Translations under genes and position numbers: made by a program | Notes under the pieces: generated by a model | Databases searched by the model: none | Told to the model about the DNA's origin: nothing | What the model saw: only the letters and a program-made list of their open reading frames with translations | Virus record (IMG/VR): IMGVR_UViG_3300037461_000142 | Span: 1 to 36,930 of that record | Direction: 5' to 3' (one strand) | Source of the DNA: a virus | Taxonomy: Duplodnaviria > Caudoviricetes | Length of the DNA: 36,930 nt | Part shown: in pieces, positions 9,055 to 25,284 of the stretch | How positions within the stretch are numbered: the stretch's first letter is position 1 | How the letters are laid out: each line of letters begins with the position of its first letter

Positions 9055-9581
9055 GTCTGCTCCTGATTGGTTGCGAGGGCGGGGCTCGAACCCGCGCCTT
9101 GCGGCTTATGAGGCCGCTGCTCTGCCGACTGAGCTACCTCGCTGCAAATCTGTTCCACTACCGCCATCCGCACGGCACGGTGCGGCCGGTGGCCTGGGAA
9201 TAGCCGATCATGCTCGGCCGCGATGCGGATTGCCTCTGCCTGATCGACGCATACGGTAGCGTCGCCGTGCACACCGAGGACGTACCAGCGGCCCGACATG
9301 CGCGGGTCTTCCATCACCGTCACCACGTCTCCGCGGTATAGATCGGCAGCGACATGCACATGCTGCCTGCGTCCATCGTCGCGCGTGTACTCTGCGAGGA
9401 TGTCCGGCTCAAGCGTGACTGCAGGTTGTGCCGGCGCATGAATGAACAACGGCACAGGTCGCCGACCAGCCGCGCGCCCCTCGTCGCTGCTGCACCACCA
9501 TTCGACCTGGCGTTGCGGACCGACCAGCTCGTAGTCGATCCTGCCGTCCGTGAGCTGCACGGCCCAGGCGGCGGGTGTCAT
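9051..9581 (-). CDS. Hypothetical protein whose 3' end reads through the tRNA
   Basis: GGAGG RBS, ATGA overlap at the start and GTGA overlap at the stop. Confidence 0.6.
   Translation of the reverse strand: MTPAAWAVQLTDGRIDYELVGPQRQVEWWCSSDEGRAAGRRPVPLFIHAPAQPAVTLEPDILAEYTRDDGRRQHVHVAADLYRGDVVTVMEDPRMSGRWYVLGVHGDATVCVDQAEAIRIAAEHDRLFPGHRPHRAVRMAVVEQICSEVAQSAEQRPHKPQGAGSSPALATNQEQT
9068..9143 (-). tRNA. tRNA with CAT anticodon (Met/fMet/Ile2 identity unresolved), 76 nt, CCA encoded
   Basis: AGCGAGG-TA-GCTC-AGTCGGCA-GAGC-A-GCGGC-CTCATAA-GCCGC-AAGGC-GCGGG-TTCGAGC-CCCGC-CCTCGCA-A-CCA folds into a full cloverleaf. Confidence 0.92.
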
Positions 9582-10817: not shown

Positions 10818-12809
10818 CTACCAAATCCGGCCCACGCGCCGCATGCGCGGCCGGCCGGCTGGCTGGGGTGGCGCCTGGTCGGCTGGCGGCGGCGACCATG
10901 CATCCGGCCTGGCTGCCTTGGCCTGGGCCCGCAGGTGCGCCTCCCACCGGTCCCAGTCGGCGCCGGTCATGCGGTGCAGGCGCAGCTCTGGGTGGTGCGC
11001 CGCGGCGTAGGCGTGCACCCATGTGTCAAGCGGCTCGTTGCGCACGCTGCCGCGGCGCTTCTCGAAGCGGTTCTTGCTCGGGTTGAACACCTCGGAGATC
11101 AGGCCGCGGAAGAAGTCGTCGCCGAGCTGGTCGCTGAAGTGGCACATGCGGTCTGGAGCGTCGGGGCGCGTCGCCTCCGGCATCGAGGCCCACCGCGCCT
11201 GCGCGTCGGCGTCGGCGGCCAGCCTGGAGTACAGGACATGCTTGGCGTTGACCGTGCCGACCTGGTACAGGTGCACGCCGCGCTTGTCGTACTGGCCGCG
11301 CCATGTCACGTCGTGCAGCTTGCCCTTGCTAAGGATGGGGGCGGTGTTGGGCTTGGCGCCGAAGCTGGCCATGGGCCGGCGCACGGTGCGCTGGCGCACC
11401 CAGTGCTTCACCGCCTCTGTGCGGTGCCCGAATATGTCGACGCTGACTGCCTCGATCGGCATCGACGCGCCGCTGACGTGCTGCACGGGGCGGTTGAGCA
11501 GCTCGGTGAGCGCGGCGCGCGCGGCGTCGCTGTCCGGGTCGCCGTTGATGACGACGTAGTCGAGCACCCAGAAGGCCAGGCCGCGCCCCCAGCCGACGAT
11601 GTGGACCTCGAACCGGTCGTCCTGCGTGTCGACGCCGGCTGTGATGCGCAGCACGCCCTCTGGAGCCACGCGCAGCGGGTAGGGCTCGGCCCGCTCGGCC
11701 ACGATGTTGTGGCGCACGTTTGCGGTGGACTGGTCCTCCCACGGCTCGGCCAGGCGGTCGTTGACGAAGGTCTTGAGGCGCGCCGGGTCGCCCTGCGCCT
11801 CGAGGAACATCTCCGCGAGCTCGTGCCACCTCGGGCCCAGGCCGAACTGGTAGTACAGGCCGTTGATGTGGTAGCCGCGGCGCGGCTCGTCGGGCTGGCC
11901 TGGCACCCAGCGGCCGGCGGCGATCATGTCCGTCTTGTGGGCCTCCTCGATCTCGGCGCCGCATGCGCTGCACACCAGCCAGGCGTGACGGTGCCGGCCT
12001 ATAGGGCGGTGCGTCTCCCAGTGCAGCGCGGCCCATGTCATGGGCTCGGCGTGGCCGCAGTGCGGGCACGGAACGTGGTAGCGCCGCTGATCGCTCCGCT
12101 CCCACAGCCACCAGATGCGGCTGGTGCTGCGCATCTGCGGGCTGCTGATGTACAGGCGCTTGCTGGTGCCTGGGAAGGCGCTGGTTCGCCCCTCGAGCAT
12201 CGCCACCGGGTCGTCGCCGCTGAGCAGGTTGGCGGCGAACTCGTCCAGCTCGTCGGCGATCACCGTGCGGACGGTGGTCATCTTCAGGCGCGCGGCGGTG
12301 CCGGCGTGCTCCATGAACAACTGGCCGCCGGTGAAGTCCTTGAAGGTGCGCGTGTTCGCCGCCTCGCGGCTGGCCGTGCTGGTGAGCGCGCGCTGGACGG
12401 CAGGCGTCTCCTCGATCATGGGGTGCAACTTCTGCGCCACCCACTTGTTGAGGCTCACTTCGCCCGGCAGGCACACCATGATCGGGCCTGGCGCATGGTC
12501 CATCGTGTAGCCGACGACGTTGATGGCAACCTCCGTCTTTGCGAACTGGATGGGCCACATGAGGACGACCTCGCGCGCCGGGTCGCGCACGCTCATCGTG
12601 TCCATCGGCTCGCGCGTGGGCGGGTTGCGGTCGGTGCGCCACCGCCCGGCCTCGGCGCTTCCCTTGGTGCTCAGCCGGCGCTCCCGGTCGGCCCAGTCGC
12701 TGACGCGCAGCACCTCGCGCGGCTCGAGCGCGCGCACCAGGCGCAACCGGACGGCCGGCCGCGCGGGCGGGGGCTCCATGTTGGCGGAGGCGGATTGGGC
12801 ATTCGTCAC
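10818..12809 (-). CDS. Terminase large subunit, lambda gpA family
   Basis: GRWRTDRNP, QFAKTE (variant Walker A), VIADELD, PCPHCG...CSACG, TAGVDTQDDR and RNEPLD motifs. GTG start overlaps the upstream stop. Confidence 0.96.
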   Translation of the reverse strand: MTNAQSASANMEPPPARPAVRLRLVRALEPREVLRVSDWADRERRLSTKGSAEAGRWRTDRNPPTREPMDTMSVRDPAREVVLMWPIQFAKTEVAINVVGYTMDHAPGPIMVCLPGEVSLNKWVAQKLHPMIEETPAVQRALTSTASREAANTRTFKDFTGGQLFMEHAGTAARLKMTTVRTVIADELDEFAANLLSGDDPVAMLEGRTSAFPGTSKRLYISSPQMRSTSRIWWLWERSDQRRYHVPCPHCGHAEPMTWAALHWETHRPIGRHRHAWLVCSACGAEIEEAHKTDMIAAGRWVPGQPDEPRRGYHINGLYYQFGLGPRWHELAEMFLEAQGDPARLKTFVNDRLAEPWEDQSTANVRHNIVAERAEPYPLRVAPEGVLRITAGVDTQDDRFEVHIVGWGRGLAFWVLDYVVINGDPDSDAARAALTELLNRPVQHVSGASMPIEAVSVDIFGHRTEAVKHWVRQRTVRRPMASFGAKPNTAPILSKGKLHDVTWRGQYDKRGVHLYQVGTVNAKHVLYSRLAADADAQARWASMPEATRPDAPDRMCHFSDQLGDDFFRGLISEVFNPSKNRFEKRRGSVRNEPLDTWVHAYAAAHHPELRLHRMTGADWDRWEAHLRAQAKAARPDAWSPPPADQAPPQPAGRPRMRRVGRIW

Positions 12810-13270
12810 GGCAGCCGTGCCTCCCATGCCAGCTTTGTCTGCGTTGGCGCTGTATCCACGCGCGGCCGGCTCGTACGGTTCCAACTTCCGCCGCCAGCCT
12901 CGCCAAGCAGTACAAAGCCAGCAGCGCGCAGACTGGCGCCCCCCTCCTCTGGCAACGTGTACGTCACAAGCCGGCGATACCCCATCGCACGAGCCGCCCG
13001 CCACGCGGCTCCGTACAGCATCGAGCACGCATTTCTCGCGCCATCCGTGCAGCAGCGGTTGACCTCCAGGGTCCATCCGTTGTCGATCATGCGAGCCACC
13101 GGCCGCCCCACGATTGCCACGCCACGCACAGTGCCGCACTCGTCGCTCACGCTTAGTGAGAATTTCGCGCCTGGCACCGGCTTGTGGTGGCGGTGATGCA
13201 TTGCGACGAATGCGTTCGCTTCGGCCAGGCTGATTGGCGTCACAGCCAGCTTGAATCTGCGCTCTGTCAC
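12806..13270 (-). CDS. XF1762-family protein (Mom-related GNAT-like fold)
   Basis: ANAFVAMHHRHH, GVAIVGRPVAR, LEVNR, GYRRLVTYT..EEGGASLRAAGF. Confidence 0.8.
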   Translation of the reverse strand: MTERRFKLAVTPISLAEANAFVAMHHRHHKPVPGAKFSLSVSDECGTVRGVAIVGRPVARMIDNGWTLEVNRCCTDGARNACSMLYGAAWRAARAMGYRRLVTYTLPEEGGASLRAAGFVLLGEAGGGSWNRTSRPRVDTAPTQTKLAWEARLP

Positions 13271-14962: not shown

Positions 14963-17461
14963 TCAGATCGGGCCATCGTCGTCCGCTCCAGCCATCGCGG
15001 GGGCCTGCGAGTGATGCGATGCGCCGCTTGGCGCGCTCTTGTTGCCGCTACCGTGCTGCGCGAAGGGCGATGTCATCTCGGCCCACTCCTTGAGCGCGGC
15101 GGTGAAGTCGTTGATCGCCTTGCTGAGGTCGGCCTTGCTGGCCGGCGCATCGACGCCGGTTGGGTGCAGCACCTGGCTCTGCACTTCGCGCGTCATGCTG
15201 TGGTGCAGGAAGTGACGCTCGCGCGCCTTGCGCACGCCTGGGCGCTTGACCCAAGACCCGATGCAGGTGTTCAGCTGCGCTGGCTTGCTCACGCCCTGCA
15301 GGCGGCACCAGTGGGCATAGGCGCGGTACAGGTCCTCTGTGCGCACGCTGCACACCGGCAGCAGCAGGTGCTTGCCGGTCCACTCCAGCCAGAAGCGGTC
15401 GGAGCTGTCGGCGCCGAGCTCGATCAGCTCAGTCTTGGCCGCCGTCATGGGCGGCAGCGTGGCCGGGCCGAATTCTCCGAGGTCAATCTCCAGCAGGTGC
15501 TGGTGCAGCGCCGCGGCGCCGCCGGCGCGCACCTCGGCGATCACCGCGTTGTACATGGCCGCGTCCCACTTGGGCGGGGTCCAGATGACCGCGTATCGCC
15601 GATCGTCGCGCTCGAGCGCCATCGGCTGCGTCTCGTTGCTCAGGAAGACCAGGTTGATGTGGTTGCGCTCGTGGTAGCGCGCCATGAACTTCGCATTGAT
15701 CGGGATGCTGTCGCCGGTCACCAGCCCCTTGAGCTTGTTCTTTTGGTGGAACATCTCCTGCCGCGCCACCACCTCGTCGGCGATGATGAAGAGCTTGCGG
15801 CTCGCCCAGTCGTTGTACTTGTCCTCGACGGTGTCCTGGTCCACCACCTTGCCGTAGGGGCCGAAGACCTGGAGGTGCGTCTCCCAGAAGAGGTTCTTGC
15901 CGGTGCCCTGGGGGCCGTGCATGATCACGGCCGTCTTCATCTTCGCGCCCGGGTGCTGCACTGGATAGGCCATCCAGCAGCGCAGCCAGCGCCACAGCTC
16001 GGCCGCCTTCGGCTCGAGGCTGCACAGGTACTCGCCCAGCTCGAGGATACGATCGCAGCGCCCCGGCCGCGGCCTGGTGGGCCAGCCTGACCACATGTTG
16101 CAGCGGATGCTGGTGTCGGTTCCGGCGGGGTCGAAGCCCACCTCATCGATGCGCACGATGCGCTTGTCGGGCGACTCCATCCAACGCCTGTGGATCTGCC
16201 GGCTCACGCACAAGTTGCGCATGCTCGCCAGCGGCACCATGCGGTGCTCCTGGCCGTCGAAGACCGTCTCCGCAGCCTCGTACACCAGCCAGAAGCGCTC
16301 GTGCAGCTCGCTCTCGTGCATGATGCTGCGCAGGCATGGTCGGCCGCCTTCGTCGCCCTCCCCTTCCCCGCTCGAGGAGGAGGCCGGCGCGCGCTGGCGC
16401 GGCAGGGTCTTCAGCACCGGCTCCAGGGCTCGCTCGATCTGGGCGCGCACGACGTGCAGCCCCTCGGCCAGGTGCAGGTCGTTAAAGTCGGTCGGGCCCT
16501 TCTTGTCGACGGGCCTGGCGCCCGCGAACCGCGGCAGCACCCACGTGATGCCATCGGCCAGCACCGACGTTGCCTGAGCCGCCGCCACTCCGGCGTTGCC
16601 GGCCTGGTGCGGCTGCCCGCAGTGCGCGCAGGTGGCCGCCTCGGTTGGCGTGAGCTCGCCGCAGGCGCGGCACTTGCCAAGGTAGTCGTCGTCGGCCAGC
16701 ACCAGCAGGCGGAGCTTGGGCCAGCGCGCGCGCAGCGCCGTCGCCACGTGCATCAGGTTGCCGGCGTCGAAGGCCACCGCCACGGGCAGCCCAACGGCCT
16801 CGAACGCGCTGGCCGCGGTGGCGTAGCCCTCGGCAAGCATGCAGACGCCGGAGCTCGCCGGCGAGCCGATCGGGAAAAAGTGGCCCTGCTTCGCGATGCC
16901 TGGCGGCCAGAAGTCCTTGTCGCGCCCGGTGCGCTTGACCTTGGGGTGTCCCCGCGGGTAGATGGCCTGCAGGCCCCAGACCTTGGCGTGCGCGTCGAGC
17001 AACGGCAGGATCATCGCGCCGCTGGGCGCGAATCGCACGCCGTGCGGGGCGACGCCCTTGCGCTGCAGGTACTCGCTCTCGCCGTCGGGCGACAGGCGCT
17101 GCCACATGGCCTGGGCCCGGGCCGCCGCGCGCTCGATCTCGCCGCGACGCTGGGCCTCGGCCGCCTTGCGGTCTGCCTTGATGCGCGCCGCCAGTGCGGT
17201 TTGCTGCTCCGTGCTGAGCGACTCGCTCCGCTCGAGCTTGATCTTCTGCGCCCCGTTGTCGTTCCCGCGCCAGACGCCGTAGCTGCCGACGAGCAGGGAG
17301 CCGCCGGAGGTGCGCGGCATCTCGTGCAGGTGGTACCACCCCCGGCGCTCGCGATCGTCCGCCACCCGGCACCGCACGAGGCGGCCGACGACCAGGCCCT
17401 CGACCAGCAGCCCCTCGGCCCGCAGCTGGCCGAGCACCTGGTCGTAGTTGGACTGGTTCAC
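14963..17461 (-). CDS. Primase-helicase (TOPRIM + SF3 helicase, P4 alpha-like)
   Basis: AEGYATA, AFDAGNL, ADDD, TDFNDL; Walker A GPQGTGKN; Walker B IIADE; DDRRY. Confidence 0.93.
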   Translation of the reverse strand: MNQSNYDQVLGQLRAEGLLVEGLVVGRLVRCRVADDRERRGWYHLHEMPRTSGGSLLVGSYGVWRGNDNGAQKIKLERSESLSTEQQTALAARIKADRKAAEAQRRGEIERAAARAQAMWQRLSPDGESEYLQRKGVAPHGVRFAPSGAMILPLLDAHAKVWGLQAIYPRGHPKVKRTGRDKDFWPPGIAKQGHFFPIGSPASSGVCMLAEGYATAASAFEAVGLPVAVAFDAGNLMHVATALRARWPKLRLLVLADDDYLGKCRACGELTPTEAATCAHCGQPHQAGNAGVAAAQATSVLADGITWVLPRFAGARPVDKKGPTDFNDLHLAEGLHVVRAQIERALEPVLKTLPRQRAPASSSSGEGEGDEGGRPCLRSIMHESELHERFWLVYEAAETVFDGQEHRMVPLASMRNLCVSRQIHRRWMESPDKRIVRIDEVGFDPAGTDTSIRCNMWSGWPTRPRPGRCDRILELGEYLCSLEPKAAELWRWLRCWMAYPVQHPGAKMKTAVIMHGPQGTGKNLFWETHLQVFGPYGKVVDQDTVEDKYNDWASRKLFIIADEVVARQEMFHQKNKLKGLVTGDSIPINAKFMARYHERNHINLVFLSNETQPMALERDDRRYAVIWTPPKWDAAMYNAVIAEVRAGGAAALHQHLLEIDLGEFGPATLPPMTAAKTELIELGADSSDRFWLEWTGKHLLLPVCSVRTEDLYRAYAHWCRLQGVSKPAQLNTCIGSWVKRPGVRKARERHFLHHSMTREVQSQVLHPTGVDAPASKADLSKAINDFTAALKEWAEMTSPFAQHGSGNKSAPSGASHHSQAPAMAGADDDGPI

Positions 17462-17859
17462 CCGGCTGAACCCCCACTGACTACAGACTGCTCGGGGGCC
17501 GAATCACCCGCGTCTGCAGGGGCCAGGAAGGACCCATCGACCGGCGCTCCATCGTTCACCGCGTGCAGTGAACGCGATGCGGCAGCGCCCGCGATCTCCA
17601 ATTCTGCAGGGGAACGGGGCCAGGCTGCGCCGGCTTGGCGCTGCTGCCATGCGGCACGCACGTCGTGGATCAGCTTGTCGGCGGCCACGTCACCTCTGTG
17701 CTGGCGCACGCCCTTGACGCTTCGGCCATCGACGAGCCCGCCCTCGATGTAGGCCCGGCGCGCCTCACGCGACGGCAGGGCCAAGACCCAGCGAACCTCG
17801 CACTCATGGCGATGCTCTTCGCTGTAGGTGTAGCCGAGCCACTGCCGAAGCGGCTTCAC
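17458..17859 (-). CDS. Hypothetical protein
   Basis: GTGA overlaps at both ends; SEEHRHECEVRWVL. Confidence 0.6.
   Translation of the reverse strand: MKPLRQWLGYTYSEEHRHECEVRWVLALPSREARRAYIEGGLVDGRSVKGVRQHRGDVAADKLIHDVRAAWQQRQAGAAWPRSPAELEIAGAAASRSLHAVNDGAPVDGSFLAPADAGDSAPEQSVVSGGSAG
17493..17535 (-). other. Putative cos site (cosQ-like GGGTCCT plus CGGG-N10-CCCG dyad)
   Basis: Minus strand reads GGGTCCT-18 nt-CGGGTGATTCGGCCCCCG. Lambda cosQ is GGGTCCT about 17 bp before cosN, and the terminase is lambda-type. Confidence 0.55.
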
Positions 17860-18122
17860 TCGGCGCGGCTGACGCCAGGAGGCCTGCCGCAGACCAGACT
17901 CCCGGCCGCTCCCCGGCAATCCCGGCTGCTCCCGTCGATTCCCAGGCGCCGCGCTTCGTCGGCCAGCATCATGGCCGCATGCAACTCACGCCGCACCTCA
18001 CGCACCAGCACGGCCTCGGCCCACTCGCACAGATCCAGGCCCATGACGTCGGTGAGCAGCCTCATGGCGGCGTGGTCGTCCGGGTTGACCTTGAGCCGAA
18101 GGTCCTTCCTCTCGAGCGTCAT
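17856..18122 (-). CDS. Hypothetical protein, possible ribbon-helix-helix regulator in the cII position
   Basis: RKDLRLKV strand followed by two helices; downstream of cro. Confidence 0.55.
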   Translation of the reverse strand: MTLERKDLRLKVNPDDHAAMRLLTDVMGLDLCEWAEAVLVREVRRELHAAMMLADEARRLGIDGSSRDCRGAAGSLVCGRPPGVSRAE

Positions 18123-18328
18123 CTCCGCACCTCGCGGTTGCCGTACTCCCGCAGCCACTCGCCCAACGTGCGGGCTGCTGCCGCCGCCTGCACGTCGCAG
18201 CGCCGGCCGCCGAGCTGCTCGGCCAGGTCGCGCTCCACGCGCCAGATGCCACGGCTCGACGACGCCTCGGAGAAGCGCCTGATCACCCCGGCGATAGCTG
18301 TCGCTTCACGCTGCACGCTGTGCCCCAT
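18119..18328 (-). CDS. Hypothetical protein (start uncertain)
   Basis: Fills the gap; stop overlaps the next ATG. Confidence 0.35.
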   Translation of the reverse strand: MGHSVQREATAIAGVIRRFSEASSSRGIWRVERDLAEQLGGRRCDVQAAAAARTLGEWLREYGNREVRR

Positions 18329-18533
18329 CCTGCAGTGGTTCTGGCGCCTGGATGATCTGGAGCGCGATCGCGAGAGCGCGCACCTTGCTGTAGCCGGGAT
18401 CGTTCTCGCGCGATCGGATGCGCAGGACCGTGTCGTAGCTGATCCCGGCCTTTCGCGCGATGCGCGACAGCTCGCCTCGGCGCGCTTGCAACTCATCGAC
18501 GACGGCGTCGAGCAGGTCTGTCTGTGGGGCCAT
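18306..18533 (-). CDS. Cro-like HTH regulator
   Basis: LSRIARKAGISYDTVLRI...NDPG; divergent from the repressor. Confidence 0.85.
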   Translation of the reverse strand: MAPQTDLLDAVVDELQARRGELSRIARKAGISYDTVLRIRSRENDPGYSKVRALAIALQIIQAPEPLQDGAQRAA

Positions 18534-18541
18534 CGGCGCGC

Positions 18542-18583
18542 ATCATAGGCACATCTGCCTCAACGCGCAAGGCACGAATGCCG
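18542..18583 (-). promoter_or_regulatory. PR-like promoter with two repressor operators
   Basis: TTGCGC-17-TATGAT on the minus strand; GGCA-N4-TGCC dyads at 18547-18560 and 18570-18583. Confidence 0.8.
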
Positions 18584-18625
18584 CACCCGGTCGGTCACGA
18601 TCGAGAGGTGCCTCCTCCACCAGTC

Positions 18626-18946
18626 ATGCAGACCTTGGCGCGGAACCTGTCCGCCTTGATGCAGGCCCACCCGACGCTGCGCACGCAAGCCGGCGTGGCC
18701 CGGGCCGCCGGCGTCGATCAGCGCACCGTCGGCCGCGTCCTCAACATGGAGCACGCGCCGAGCGTCGCACAGCTTGAGAAGCTGGCCGGCGCCTTCCATG
18801 TCGAGGCGTGGCTCCTACTCCTGCCAGAGCTCGATCCTGCCGACCTCCCGGCACAGGTGCTGACACGCTCGCAGGCCGGCGCGTGGACAAGCCTGCGGAT
18901 CGCCGCGGAGTCGATCGCCAAGTACGGTAAGGATGGGCGGGGCTAG
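18626..18946 (+). CDS. CI-like XRE repressor without an S24 autopeptidase domain (alternative start 18578)
   Basis: LARNLSALM...TQAGVARAAGVDQRTVGRVL...PSVAQLEKLAGAF. Confidence 0.85.
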   Translation: MQTLARNLSALMQAHPTLRTQAGVARAAGVDQRTVGRVLNMEHAPSVAQLEKLAGAFHVEAWLLLLPELDPADLPAQVLTRSQAGAWTSLRIAAESIAKYGKDGRG

Positions 18947-19245
18947 CGTGGCGTTCTCACGTCAAGCTCGACACCTACCAGGTTGCGAACCTCGAGTGGC
19001 AGCCAAGGCCGTAGAAGCACAGCCGGCGCGCCGAGCAGGATCAGGCACACACACAGCATGCCGGACACAGACAGAGGGATTGCCCGGTCGCCGGCCAGAT
19101 ACTGGCGCATGGTACGCGGCGCCACTCCAGCGAGCTCGGCAGCGCGGGCCTGTGTGATGCCGCCGCGCTCGATGATGTCGCGCAGCTGGGCCGGAGTCAT
19201 GCGCTGCTGCGCAGACCCCGGTTTGCGGCCGGGGTGGTTGGTCAT
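18943..19245 (-). CDS. HTH regulator, Aca1-like (100 aa)
   Basis: PAQLRDIIERGGITQARAAELAGVAPRTMRQYLAGD; second gene of a two-gene operon with a palindromic operator. Confidence 0.8.
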   Translation of the reverse strand: MTNHPGRKPGSAQQRMTPAQLRDIIERGGITQARAAELAGVAPRTMRQYLAGDRAIPLSVSGMLCVCLILLGAPAVLLRPWLPLEVRNLVGVELDVRTPR

Positions 19246-19246
19246 G

Positions 19247-19486
19247 TCAGTCAATCCAGCGGATCGACTTGCCCGCGCTGCCCCCAACCTGCGCAAGCAC
19301 CTTGCGGCCCTTGCGGATTCGGAGGTCGATTCGCATTCCGTCGGACAGTACACGCTCTTGATCCGCCGCGAAGCCCTCGAAATACTCGCGCGCGCCCGCG
19401 AGGTCGGCGAACCGGCGTGCGCCGAAACCGAACCAATGGCCTTGCGCGCCGCGCCCGAACTTCTCGACTTCGTACTGGGTGCTCAT
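19247..19486 (-). CDS. Unknown 79-aa protein, candidate anti-CRISPR / anti-defence factor
   Basis: AGGAG RBS, own strong promoter, 1 bp upstream of the Aca1-like gene. The function is inferred from context only. Confidence 0.7.
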   Translation of the reverse strand: MSTQYEVEKFGRGAQGHWFGFGARRFADLAGAREYFEGFAADQERVLSDGMRIDLRIRKGRKVLAQVGGSAGKSIRWID

Positions 19487-19545
19487 TTCACTTCTCCTGC
19501 CCACTGCCCGGGGCCCGGGTCGCAGCACCTTGCTGCGATGGGTGT

Positions 19546-19574
19546 ACTATAGGCGCATTGCGCCTATTCGTCAA
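19546..19574 (-). promoter_or_regulatory. Strong sigma70 promoter with a palindromic operator in the spacer
   Basis: TTGACG-17-TATAGT; perfect dyad ATAGGCGCA-T-TGCGCCTAT at 19549-19567. Confidence 0.88.
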
Positions 19575-19610
19575 GCATGTCGATACTAGGGAAAACCCTA
19601 ATACCTAGTC

Positions 19611-19652
19611 TGGCAGATTTGCCTTGACGTGATAGGCATTCGTGCCTAGACT
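19611..19652 (+). promoter_or_regulatory. PL-like promoter with two repressor operators
   Basis: TTGACG(19624)-17-TAGACT(19647); GGCA-N4-TGCC dyads at 19611-19624 and 19634-19647. Confidence 0.85.
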
Positions 19653-19690
19653 GCTCTCCACGCGCTGCCCCACGGCGCGAGGAGACGCAG

Positions 19691-19945
19691 GTGAGCCGAC
19701 TTCTTGACTCAGCGCTGGACGCCGAGCGGCTGCTCGACGTGCTGGCGCACGATGCGCGCCCCGCTGCGCTGCTGCATCCGGCGGCCTTGCACTTCGACTC
19801 AGCCGAGGCCGCGCTACGAGCCGGCCGGCGCGCCTTTGCGCACGGCTGGATGCTCGATGCGCAGGACTACGTAGAGCTCGCGCGCAGCTACTTGGCCGAT
19901 GCGCTGACGGCCATCGCGTTGCCGGCCATCGGGAGCCCGGCATGA
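19691..19945 (+). CDS. Hypothetical early protein
   Basis: GAGGAG RBS; first gene after the PL-like promoter. Confidence 0.7.
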   Translation: MSRLLDSALDAERLLDVLAHDARPAALLHPAALHFDSAEAALRAGRRAFAHGWMLDAQDYVELARSYLADALTAIALPAIGSPA

Positions 19946-20178
19946 CGCAGCAGCTCATGTTGGCGTTGACGGAATCCGACGGCCCGGCAGACGCTGGCGG
20001 CCCGCGCGCGTGGGCCCTGTACAGCGGCACGCCACGGCACCCCCACCGCTGGCTCGCCATGGTCGCGCCGGCGGAGTTCCAGCGCGATGCGGTGTGGACA
20101 GGCACCACGGTGCACCGCGACACATCCTCGGCGATCGCCGAGGCAGCAGCGCAGCTTGCGCGCCGGGAGGCCGCATGA
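19942..20178 (+). CDS. Hypothetical early protein
   Basis: ATGA coupling at both ends. Confidence 0.65.
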   Translation: MTQQLMLALTESDGPADAGGPRAWALYSGTPRHPHRWLAMVAPAEFQRDAVWTGTTVHRDTSSAIAEAAAQLARREAA

Positions 20179-20342
20179 CGCCGCGCACCTTGGCGGAGTG
20201 CAGGTTCGAGGTCGGCTACTCCGCGGCCGACCACCCCAGGCGCCCAGTGCCGCTTGGCGAGCGAGTCGCCGGCGTGGTGCTGGCCACGGTGATCGGCATC
20301 CTCCTGGCGGCCGCCGCCGTCCACTGGTGGAGCGCGACGTGA
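20175..20342 (+). CDS. Small membrane protein
   Basis: GGAGG RBS; C-terminal TM segment VAGVVLATVIGILLAAAAVHWW. Confidence 0.65.
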   Translation: MTPRTLAECRFEVGYSAADHPRRPVPLGERVAGVVLATVIGILLAAAAVHWWSAT

Positions 20343-20566
20343 TGGACCGCCACTACGTCGCCCCCTCGATCTCGCGCACCGGCTGCGTCTACCAGCAGCC
20401 GCGCGACGAGCAGCTCGTCGACGGATTCGACATCGACGCGAACGGCCGGTGGACGCCCGCCAGCGGCGCACTCGACGCGCCCGAGTGGATCGGCACCGGC
20501 TCGATCCGTGGCGAGCAGCTCGCCGGGATCGTCCTGGGAATCGCCAACAGGAGGAGAGGCACATGA
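20342..20566 (+). CDS. Hypothetical early protein
   Basis: TGATG coupling; MDRHYVAPS... Confidence 0.55.
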   Translation: MDRHYVAPSISRTGCVYQQPRDEQLVDGFDIDANGRWTPASGALDAPEWIGTGSIRGEQLAGIVLGIANRRRGT

Positions 20567-20877
20567 CCAAACTCGACCTCGGGCCGCCCGCCGAGCCCTA
20601 CAGCTTCGCCGAACTGTGCCGTCGCAATCCAGGATGGATGGGCGACTTCGCCGACACCATCCCGACAGCACCCGGCCATCTCGACGACAAGCCGACCACC
20701 TGGCCCGCATGCGGCGGCGCGTGCGCCGAGCGTGCGCGCCCGTGCCCGACGCCGCGCCAGTGCTGGCTGGTCGAGCGCGAGGACGACGGCATCGAAGTCG
20801 TCCGGGGCCTGCTGTGGACCCTGGGGCTGACCGCTGCCGTCGCTGCGGCCGGGCTGCTGGTGGCGTACCTGATCTGA
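20563..20877 (+). CDS. Membrane-anchored protein with Cys cluster
   Basis: AGGAGG RBS; CGGACAERARPCPTPRQC followed by a C-terminal TM segment. Confidence 0.65.
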   Translation: MTKLDLGPPAEPYSFAELCRRNPGWMGDFADTIPTAPGHLDDKPTTWPACGGACAERARPCPTPRQCWLVEREDDGIEVVRGLLWTLGLTAAVAAAGLLVAYLI

Positions 20878-20936
20878 TCGAAGCGAAATGACAGTGGCAC
20901 GCCGACCGCCATTCAGGACCCCAACAGGAGATTGCG

Positions 20937-21773
20937 ATGCAAGAGCGTAACCAGGAAGTGCATGGCGGCAGGGACAAGATCGATCGCCACGACTGGAAGG
21001 TGCTGGACCAGCCAGGCGTACTGCGCATGCTGAACAAGAAGGTGCTGCGCGTTGATGATCAGTACCAGCGCGAGGCCACTGAGCCGAAGGTGAAGGAGAT
21101 TGCGCGGGCGTGGAGCTGGCTGGCGTGCGGCGCGCTGCTGGTGGCCGAACGCGAAGGCGTGTACTTCGTGTTCGACGGCCAACACCGCGCGCTGGCGGCC
21201 CTGCGGCGCAGCGACATCACGTATCTGCCATGCGTGGTGTTCAGCACCGCGGGCTCGAAGGAAGAAGCGGAGGCGTTTCTGCGCGCCAACACGAACCGCA
21301 AGCCGCTGAACAGCCTGGCCAAGTTTCGCGCGGCCACGACTGCTGAGCAGCCGGCGGCAGTACTGGTTCGGCAACTGATCGACGCGGTGGGGCGCACTGC
21401 TTCAGACTCCGCGAAGGGCACTACGGTCAGATGCCTGTCACTGATGATGACCCACGCGCAAAAACAGCCTGAGATTCTGAAGCGGGTGTGGCCGCTGATC
21501 GCCGAGGTGTGCATCGGCAGGCCAGTGCACGAGCGCATTCTGGACGGGTTGATCTACATCGAGAACAACCTGCCGGAAGGCGAAAGCCTGCAGGACAAGG
21601 AATGGCGGAAGCGTGTGCTGCGCGTCAGCTACGACGGCCTGCTTGGCGCTGCAAACCGCTTCGCCGTTACCTACGTCAAGGGCGGCGCGAAGATCTGGGC
21701 ACTTGGCATGGTGGATGCGATGAACAAGGGATGCCGCATTCACATGAAGCTGGCGGGCCAGAAAGAGGACTAA
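20937..21773 (+). CDS. ParB/Srx-superfamily protein (DGQHR motif, DUF6551-like)
   Basis: LRVDDQYQR...YFVFDGQHRALAA...LPCVVF...EAEAF..AN. Confidence 0.8.
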   Translation: MQERNQEVHGGRDKIDRHDWKVLDQPGVLRMLNKKVLRVDDQYQREATEPKVKEIARAWSWLACGALLVAEREGVYFVFDGQHRALAALRRSDITYLPCVVFSTAGSKEEAEAFLRANTNRKPLNSLAKFRAATTAEQPAAVLVRQLIDAVGRTASDSAKGTTVRCLSLMMTHAQKQPEILKRVWPLIAEVCIGRPVHERILDGLIYIENNLPEGESLQDKEWRKRVLRVSYDGLLGAANRFAVTYVKGGAKIWALGMVDAMNKGCRIHMKLAGQKED

Positions 21774-21779
21774 CTGCAC

Positions 21780-22343
21780 ATGACCCGCCCCTACCTCATC
21801 GGCCTCACCGGCCGCGCCGGCGCCGGCAAGTCCACCGTGGCCGCGTACCTCGAGGACGAGCATGCGTTCGAGCACCGCGCGTTCGCCGACCCGATCCTCG
21901 AGATGATCTGCACGCTCTTCGCGCACTGCGGCATCGACGGCGCCCACGCCATTGAGCGCAACCTGAAGGAGCTGCCGACGGCGCTGGGCTTCAGCTACCG
22001 AGAGCTCGCCCAGGAGCTCGGCACGGGCTGGGGCCGCCGGCTCTCGGAATCGTTCTGGCTGCGCGCCGCAGAGCTGGCGCTCGACGGCGCCATGGAGCGC
22101 GGCGACGACATCGTGATCAGCGACGTGCGCTTCCCCAACGAGGCCGACTGGATCCGGCAGCGCGGCGGCGTGATCGTGCGCGTGTTCCGCAACGATCTGC
22201 CGCCGGTGCGCGCGCACGAGAGCGAGGCGCACGTCGACACGATCGGTTCCACCTGGGCGCTGTACAACTTCGGCAGCTTGGAGACCCTGTGCGACCAGGT
22301 CGACCGGATGCTCGACGAGCTGCAGAAGGACGACGGCAGATGA
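21780..22343 (+). CDS. Deoxynucleoside monophosphate kinase
   Basis: IGLTGRAGAGKST, FADP, QELGT.WGR, VISDVRFPNEA, H.SE. Confidence 0.9.
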   Translation: MTRPYLIGLTGRAGAGKSTVAAYLEDEHAFEHRAFADPILEMICTLFAHCGIDGAHAIERNLKELPTALGFSYRELAQELGTGWGRRLSESFWLRAAELALDGAMERGDDIVISDVRFPNEADWIRQRGGVIVRVFRNDLPPVRAHESEAHVDTIGSTWALYNFGSLETLCDQVDRMLDELQKDDGR

Positions 22344-24469: not shown

Positions 24470-24672
24470 AAAGCGCGTTTGGCGAGTGGTTTGAGGCGCA
24501 GCACGGAAAACGTGTCAACGAGCTGCCAGACTCGTCAGACGATCAGTTGCGCTCCCTGATCAAACTGTGTGAGGCCGCTGGCCGAGAGCTGGCATACCGC
24601 AAGCTATGGGACCGGCAACGCACATCTGCGCTGTACGCATGGAAGGCTCGCGAGAGGACGCCTGACGCATGA
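24466..24672 (+). CDS. Hypothetical protein
   Basis: ATGA coupling; GGAG RBS. Confidence 0.65.
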   Translation: MKSAFGEWFEAQHGKRVNELPDSSDDQLRSLIKLCEAAGRELAYRKLWDRQRTSALYAWKARERTPDA

Positions 24673-25120
24673 TCACCGCCAAGGCTGCCGCCGCGGCGAG
24701 GTGCTTGCGCTCCGCCCGTCCATGATCGGACGCGACACGATCACGCTGCCGGCCGGCGCGGTGAAGACGCAGCGCACGCGCACCGTGCCGATCATCGCCC
24801 CGCTGCGCCCCTGGATGCGGCATGTGGGGCCCGACGGCCTGGGCATCACCGCCGAGGGCCTGAAGACCGGATTCCGCCGCGCGCGCGAGGCTGCCGGCAT
24901 GCCGCACGTCACCTTCCACGACCTGCGCCGCAGCTGCGGCACGCTCCTCGTGCAGCGCGGCGTGCCGTTGCAGGTCGTGTCCCGCATCCTCGGGCACACC
25001 AGCACGGCAGTGACCGAGCGGGTCTACGCGCACCTCGACGTGCGCCAACTCAAGGAAGGGCTCGACGTGCTGTCCGATCTACACCGGCGTTTACACCGGG
25101 CCCGGAAGCCGCGCCCGTAG
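24669..25120 (+). pseudogene. int: 5'-truncated tyrosine integrase joined out of frame to a probable excisionase start
   Basis: Catalytic R (GCRRGE), K (VKT), HDLRR, LGH and Y are present from 24683. There is no arm-binding or core-binding domain. The coupled ATG at 24669 reads MITAKAAAA in another frame. Confidence 0.82.
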
Positions 25121-25284
25121 TCGCGCGCAAGTCCTTGATTTCATTGGTGGGCGGTACTGGTTTCGAACCAGTGACCCCTGCCGTGTGAAGGCAGTCTGGC
25201 GGACAGCGGCTGCCGATCTTCCATAGGAAGATATGGCATGCAGGCCACGTCTGGCTGACGGTGGTTTACACCAATTCTTACACC
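25080..25284. other. attP with arm-type repeats and IHF site
   Basis: TACACC pairs 12 bp apart at 25080/25092 and 25267/25279; IHF consensus AATCAAGGACTTG on the minus strand at 25128-25140. Confidence 0.75.
25145..25195 (-). other. attP core: 3' half of tRNA-Val(CAC)
   Basis: ACTGCC-TTCACAC-GGCAG-GGGTC-ACTGG-TTCGAAA-CCAGT-ACCGCCC-A-CCA. The D-arm and 5' acceptor strand are absent, and it is adjacent to int. Confidence 0.9.

Follow-up and report, generated by a model that had tools for sequence, protein, structure and literature searches.

A swappable acr-aca-like cassette in a phage immunity region encodes a predicted autorepressor related to Aca1 and Aca10 and a candidate anti-CRISPR protein

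Our analysis concerns a two-gene unit in the immunity region of a phage whose whole record (IMG/VR IMGVR_UViG_3300037461_000142, 36,930 bp, with direct terminal repeats at the ends) is the window referred to below. Between the phage repressor and a PL-like promoter lies an independent minus-strand unit in which a promoter is followed by a gene for a 79-amino acid cargo protein (P0001) and one for a 100-residue helix-turn-helix (HTH) protein (P0002; Table 1). A prediction made from the letters alone had described this unit as an acr-aca-like operon, that is, a gene for an anti-CRISPR (Acr) or other anti-defence protein followed by one for an anti-CRISPR-associated (Aca) regulator, and every element it listed is in place; the leader hairpin and the two operator look-alikes taken up below are additions to it. 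Comparison with sister cassettes lends good support to a swappable two-gene cassette of acr-aca-like architecture, through its exchangeable cargo and the AcrIE4 domain found in two sister loci; the likeness to Aca1 needs qualification, as the HTH protein is not Aca1 itself. This protein very probably binds the promoter palindrome and represses its own synthesis, and the cargo, judged from its slot and its predicted fold, probably blocks a host defence. That CRISPR is the target is possible and somewhat short of an even bet, and we hold to the same tentative degree the reading that we prefer, namely an autorepressed swappable cassette whose cargo, of predicted AcrIF9-like fold, would be an anti-CRISPR protein. 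That the cargo acts on Cas7, an analogy with AcrIF9, is doubtful.

The near-consensus promoter holds up well. Its -35 (TTGACG, 19574-19569) and -10 (TATAGT, 19551-19546) boxes, separated by a 17-nt spacer, match the consensus at 10 of 12 positions, and a promoter scan of 17000-22000 returned two promoter-like sites where 0.2 would be expected. The perfect 19-bp palindrome (9-bp arms flanking one base) is also present, and palindromes of this kind are rare in the genome (68 of 36,901 29-nt windows hold one). It had been placed in the spacer but does not lie wholly there, covering 16 spacer bases and the first three of the -10 box. Such overlap of an inverted repeat with the core promoter is found in the Aca class and in 11 cassettes, and is absent from L035. 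The ribosome-binding site, the cargo open reading frame (ORF) and, after a gap of 1 bp, the HTH ORF are arranged as originally described, and the small HTH gene comes last, behind a small cargo gene, as in the Aca class and in sister cassettes. Its stop codon overlaps that of the convergent cI-like gene by 4 nt, and a scan of the region found no terminator-like site between the HTH stop and cI.

The case for autorepression comes from covariation between operator and recognition helix (residues in Aca1 numbering). We compared 11 cassettes: the window, L003, L004, L007, L013, L015, L023, L025, L027, L031 and L033. Left out were near-duplicates or broken loci (L010, L017, L034), loci with the promoter off the contig or absent (L012, L014, L016, L024), L035, which has no palindrome, and the distant HTHs of L009 and L018. 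The operator core tracks residues 47 and 48 and not overall identity: GGCGC goes with R47-Q48 (three cassettes), CGCTC with Q47-Q48 (three), CGACC or CGGCC with E47-R48 (two), CACGC with D48 (two) and ATCCC with Q44-R47-N48 (one). HTHs only 31-56% identical have CGCTC in common, and those of L015 and L003, 80% identical over 61 columns, differ in core. Permutation values of 0.003 to 0.0003 are descriptive only, as the positions were picked after looking and the rows are related; the exceptions are L031 and L033, where R44 goes with an A as the second core base, and L007, whose site is imperfect. The pairing is calibrated by Aca1 and Aca10. Aca10, whose helix reads R-T-W-Q-Q, has been shown to bind a 19-mer identical to the L013 operator (PMC9410881), and the three sisters with a Q47-Q48 helix carry the Aca10 operator core. 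The two symmetric substitutions said to separate the operator of phage JBD30 from that of the window are indeed the differences found, and both operators occupy the same promoter register. Comparison of this kind supports well the proposed autorepression, and the helix-operator pairs amount to a natural recognition code that links two characterised repressors.

How close is the regulator to known Aca proteins? Aca1 is the best PDB sequence match of P0002 (E 2e-6; 22 of 50 residues identical), and the Aca1 segment cited in the original prediction is real and aligns with it. Of 91 search candidates, 70 are related at E<=1e-4; 58 were aligned, and the family profile ranks Aca1, Aca10 (E 1.7e-4) and Aca3 first. 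The match to Aca1 is confined to residues 5-60, the C-terminal third being different, so that similarity is not full-length. Aca1 reads two guanines with R47 and R44 and a cytosine with Y48; V45 and Y48 read the thymine methyl of the fourth pair and R59 reads the fifth (PMC8633003). R44, R47 and R59 (here R54) are kept in the window HTH, the A:T-pair readers V45 and Y48 are replaced by T and Q, and the fourth operator pair is the one that has changed, giving a GGCGC half-site in place of the GGCAC of a strict Aca1. The Aca10 combination of an R-x-x-Q-Q helix with a CGCTC operator occurs in L004, L013 and L027, and the window has R47 and GGCGC instead. In the predicted structure of P0002 (predicted local distance difference test (pLDDT) score 86), Foldseek found no match at E<=0.001; among weaker matches Aca10 has the lowest root-mean-square deviation (0.9 Å over 53 residues), with controller proteins and HigA higher by E-value. 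In a tree of 14 HTHs no branch is well supported, and P0002 sits unplaced on a long one. We regard the protein as belonging to a family of its own that lies between Aca1 and Aca10.

This family has named neighbours in a Rubrivivax metagenome-assembled genome (MAG), a Methylococcus-labelled MAG and Aquabacterium. Among 401 genomes of the family of genome G001 the HTH occurs in two and the cargo in none, and annotated phages and plasmids gave no tblastn match to the HTH or to one cargo homologue. A literature search found no published description of HTH family or cargo. The N-terminal signature of the HTH family is absent from the supplement text of PMC9410906 and of PMC13551039; a small Burkholderiaceae Aca1 cluster (6 motifs) in the latter may overlap the window family. 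Three 167-aa proteins (P0063, P0065, P0068) fuse this HTH to a second one, and in L166 it apparently stands without an obvious cargo. L019-L022 were set aside as unrelated HTHs or chance matches.

The sister cassettes came from searching viral contigs, metagenomes and genomes with the HTH. They agree in promoter spacing, in the triplet on which the palindrome is centred, in leader and in HTH, and differ in cargo. Their slot holds 17 ORFs in 13 loci, among which only the cargos of L010 and L023 are alike and none is a clear P0001 homologue; one HTH family adjoins at least 16 unrelated cargos. The L010 and L023 cargos hold the AcrIE4 domain (7VZM residues 2-51, E 1.5e-13; Pfam PF25703 above cut-off), directly upstream of HTHs 67-70% identical to that of the window; the two count as about one independent event. 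The other 15 of 17 matched no Acr or toxin family, and PDB searches of the cargos of L013 and L004:472-1059 found nothing. Exchange also runs in the other direction: members of the cargo family (72 clusters) occupy the first position after similar promoters and are followed by other regulators, adjoining an unrelated 61-aa HTH in L042 or lying upstream of a ribbon-helix-helix (RHH) gene in L043. The AcrIE4 domain is fused to a C-terminal domain of no known family, a different one in L010 (2335-2727) than in L023 (4694-4999), and by analogy with AcrIE4-F7 these cargos are candidate dual Acrs. L004 (360-3341) has two tandem cassettes, one with three cargo ORFs and a 76-aa HTH and the next with one cargo and this HTH family, a candidate anti-defence island; in L027 (2435-3695) the cassette occurs twice in head-to-tail order, repeating every 666 bp. 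Run X2 has a second contig that passes from leader to HTH and skips the cargo, as would fit a sister cassette in that sample.

The cargo model (pLDDT 94) is soluble and without a membrane segment, and shows the antiparallel sheet cradling one helix that characterizes AcrIF9. In a fold ranking AcrIF9 took ranks 1 and 2 of 48,161 chains; a Foldseek search of the PDB returned nothing at E<=0.001. Neither P0001 nor three profiles matched AcrIF9 at E<=10, and the structural alignment gives 11-15% identity, compared with 33-72% among AcrIF9 members (PMC7264359, PMC8034650, PMC9478129). Position 5 is aromatic in 68 of 68 cargo members and Q43 is invariant, which would correspond to Y5 and Q38 of AcrIF9 in the presumed register. 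For a second cargo subfamily no viral locus was found. Five long TPR proteins among 16 cargo-search matches were dropped as chance helix matches, and DUF2188, weakly matched by 12 of 68 members (E 8e-4 at best), was not adopted. A predicted complex of P0001 with two copies of Pseudomonas aeruginosa Csy3 scored 0.00, which is evidence neither way.

We envision a scenario in which, on DNA entry, the unrepressed promoter would yield a burst of cargo and HTH protein, as the Aca literature suggests. The cargo might attach to the surveillance complex of a type I CRISPR system, along the Cas7 backbone if it acts as AcrIF9 does, and keep that complex from recognising its target. Then an HTH dimer would settle on the palindrome via R44, R47, Q48 and R54 and exclude RNA polymerase, which would end synthesis of the cargo as well as read-through into cI and cro. 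Tight shut-off would matter because read-through would run antisense through cI and in the sense direction into cro.

Several observations weigh against this scenario. In the HTH, phosphate contacts are lost through A33 and A42, and Aca1 with the S42A change scarcely binds; position 42 varies freely within the window family. On the cargo side, the basic helix face of AcrIF9 (K31/R32/K36) is not kept, helix 29-42 having one partly conserved basic position (R33, K or R in 56% of 68) and being otherwise neutral or acidic, nor, in the presumed register (Q43 for Q38), is the aromatic clamp after Q38, positions 44-47 being aromatic in at most 7% of 68. The same autorepressed cassette might instead carry a cargo directed at restriction-modification, nucleotide signalling or abortive infection, its conserved basic sheet binding nucleic acid or an acidic defence protein; we think this unlikely, given that the sole identified cargo of the sister cassettes is an anti-CRISPR domain and that the best fold matches are AcrIF9. 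There is perhaps one chance in four that the cargo serves some other early function unrelated to immunity, such as host takeover, exclusion of competing phages or biasing lysis-lysogeny. The lack of any family for 15 of 17 sister cargos, a leader common to PL-type early promoters and a fold common in small phage proteins all suit this idea; Aca-type regulation, AcrIE4 in the same slot and the soluble model speak against it.

The gene order is also that of a type II toxin-antitoxin pair of HigBA layout, with a basic toxin first and neutralised by the HTH, and HigA antitoxins appear among the Foldseek matches of the HTH model, as does an MqsA-type NCBIfam match (E 7.5e-4) far below cut-off among sequence families. 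Such pairs are fixed and cognate with a known toxin, whereas here partners exchange both ways and neither a toxin family nor a RelE fold is among the matches, which makes this reading improbable. Least probable, in our view, is that the palindrome is a third operator of CI or Cro on which the HTH does not act. The only two look-alikes in the genome, each 16 bp, lie in the same register at the cro (18546-18561) and PL promoters and are probably CI/Cro operators, and the CI recognition helix also starts R-T. The look-alikes are, however, spaced 1 bp shorter; in other phages a different cassette HTH goes with a different cassette operator, and L015 and L017 have the operator unchanged despite a different gene context. 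Some cross-binding of CI or Cro to the palindrome may occur.

The leader is conserved across 12 sequences (11 pairs, two with changes on both sides); taken by itself, its folding energy is ordinary (z -0.75). Immediately 3' of the transcript start lies a hairpin that Aca1 binds (PMC13551039); the window hairpin, which the HTH might bind as RNA, has this layout and also occurs where the promoter is not accompanied by this HTH. PL-type phage promoters lacking this HTH (L088, L093, L105, L133, L134) have the same leader opening, 5 nt after the -10 box, and it resembles the lambda PL leader. A search with leader DNA only found 12 stretches on 11 contigs, ten with the HTH downstream and one of them the window's twin. 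A looser pattern was abandoned (99 distinct sites, most by chance, with a promoter filter that passed 12 and missed true ones), as was L032, a chance leader match.

Table 1. Coordinates of the cassette and flanking features in the window
Feature	Position	Strand	Remark
cI-like repressor gene	18563..18946	+	convergent with cassette; context, outside unit
HTH repressor gene, 100 aa (P0002), Aca1/Aca10-related, XRE-type, family-specific C-terminal extension	18943..19245	-	
Cargo gene, 79 aa (P0001), basic beta-beta-alpha-beta-beta protein, candidate anti-defence/anti-CRISPR, AcrIF9-like predicted fold	19247..19486	-	
Ribosome-binding site AGGAG, 7 nt 5' of ATG	19494..19498	-	
Second short conserved leader hairpin	19507..19519	-	5 pairs; one changed on both sides in 2 of 12 sequences
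Leader hairpin at predicted transcript start, 8-bp stem, 3-nt loop	19520..19538	-	kept in sister cassettes
Sigma-70-type promoter TTGACG-17-TATAGT	19546..19574	-	sister cassettes with same spacing
Predicted HTH-dimer site, 19-bp palindromic operator, core GGCGC-AAT-GCGCC	19549..19567	.	operator-helix covariation; Aca1 and Aca10 operators
Divergent PL-like promoter, 16-bp look-alike operator at 19633-19648	19624..19652	+	context

The phage comes from wetland metagenomes (four DNA runs, all possibly the source) and has a temperate-type gene set: cro (18533-18306), the cI-like gene, primase, a short integrase and lambda-like head and tail genes. One RNA run (X5) gave a sole contig, at 18322-18526, covering cro only and nothing over the cassette, which is evidence neither way. 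cro itself seems leaderless, its ATG lying 8 nt after the -10 box. Between the divergent promoters is a palindrome TAGGG-N4-CCCTA (19587-19600), and related motifs occur upstream of the -35 box in L015, L017, L033 and L042. At 24569-25200 the integrase consists of the C-terminal catalytic part only and is followed by a tRNA-like stretch, uncalled by ARAGORN, that is likely attP; a tRNA-Met (CAT) gene lies at 9068-9143 on the minus strand. A Mom-like DNA modification gene (12806-13270; phrog_1384, E 2e-38) adjoins the terminase and is likely a second anti-restriction function of the phage.

The acr-aca layout is already known, and new Aca families are a route by which new anti-CRISPRs are found. 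This one can be searched for by its DNA signature, and its slot, where a single known Acr domain stands beside 16 unannotated proteins, supplies a short list of candidates. At its fullest, the proposal is that the cargo founds a new anti-CRISPR family with an AcrIF9 fold, a different binding surface and probably another type I target, that the HTH is a new Aca family bridging Aca1 and Aca10 with its operator switched by two helix residues, and that the 15 other cargos form an anti-defence library; that all of this holds jointly is rather unlikely. If the cargo is active, an AcrIF9 fold would work without residues thought to define it.

Among known systems, acrIF1-aca1 of Pseudomonas phage JBD30 (PMC8633003; NC_020198) shares with the window its gene order, the operator register in the promoter and 15 of 17 operator bases, and both have a hairpin right after the predicted start (PMC13551039). 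Its Aca1 is 44% identical to the window HTH over residues 5-53, with R22, Q32, R44, R47, Y49 and R59 kept; the window HTH differs in T45, Q48, A33 and A42, a loop five residues shorter and a C-terminal extension of about 30 residues, and the window cassette in its single operator (not two), unrelated cargo and insertion in the immunity region. Aca10 of acrIC7-acrIC6-aca10 from Pseudomonas citronellolis (PMC9410881; 7XI5) gives the best superposition (0.9 Å; template-modelling (TM) score by target 0.87) and has the same loop after the recognition helix. Its R-T-x-Q-Q helix recurs in 23 of 58 HTH family members and its exact 19-bp operator in L013, whereas the window HTH has R47, a core starting with G, 26% identity and greater length at both ends. 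HigBA operons likewise put a small gene before an XRE HTH autorepressor (autorepression here being predicted) but, unlike them, the window cassette has partners exchangeable in both directions and a cargo that is not RelE-like. AcrIE4 (7VZM; PF25703), which occupies the same slot in L010 and L023, is unrelated to the window cargo. AcrIF9 (7BB5, 7CHR; PMC7264359, PMC8034650, PMC9478129) resembles P0001 in being small and basic, with a sheet and one helix; 65-66 residues align, and in the presumed register both would have an aromatic residue 5 and an invariant glutamine after the helix.
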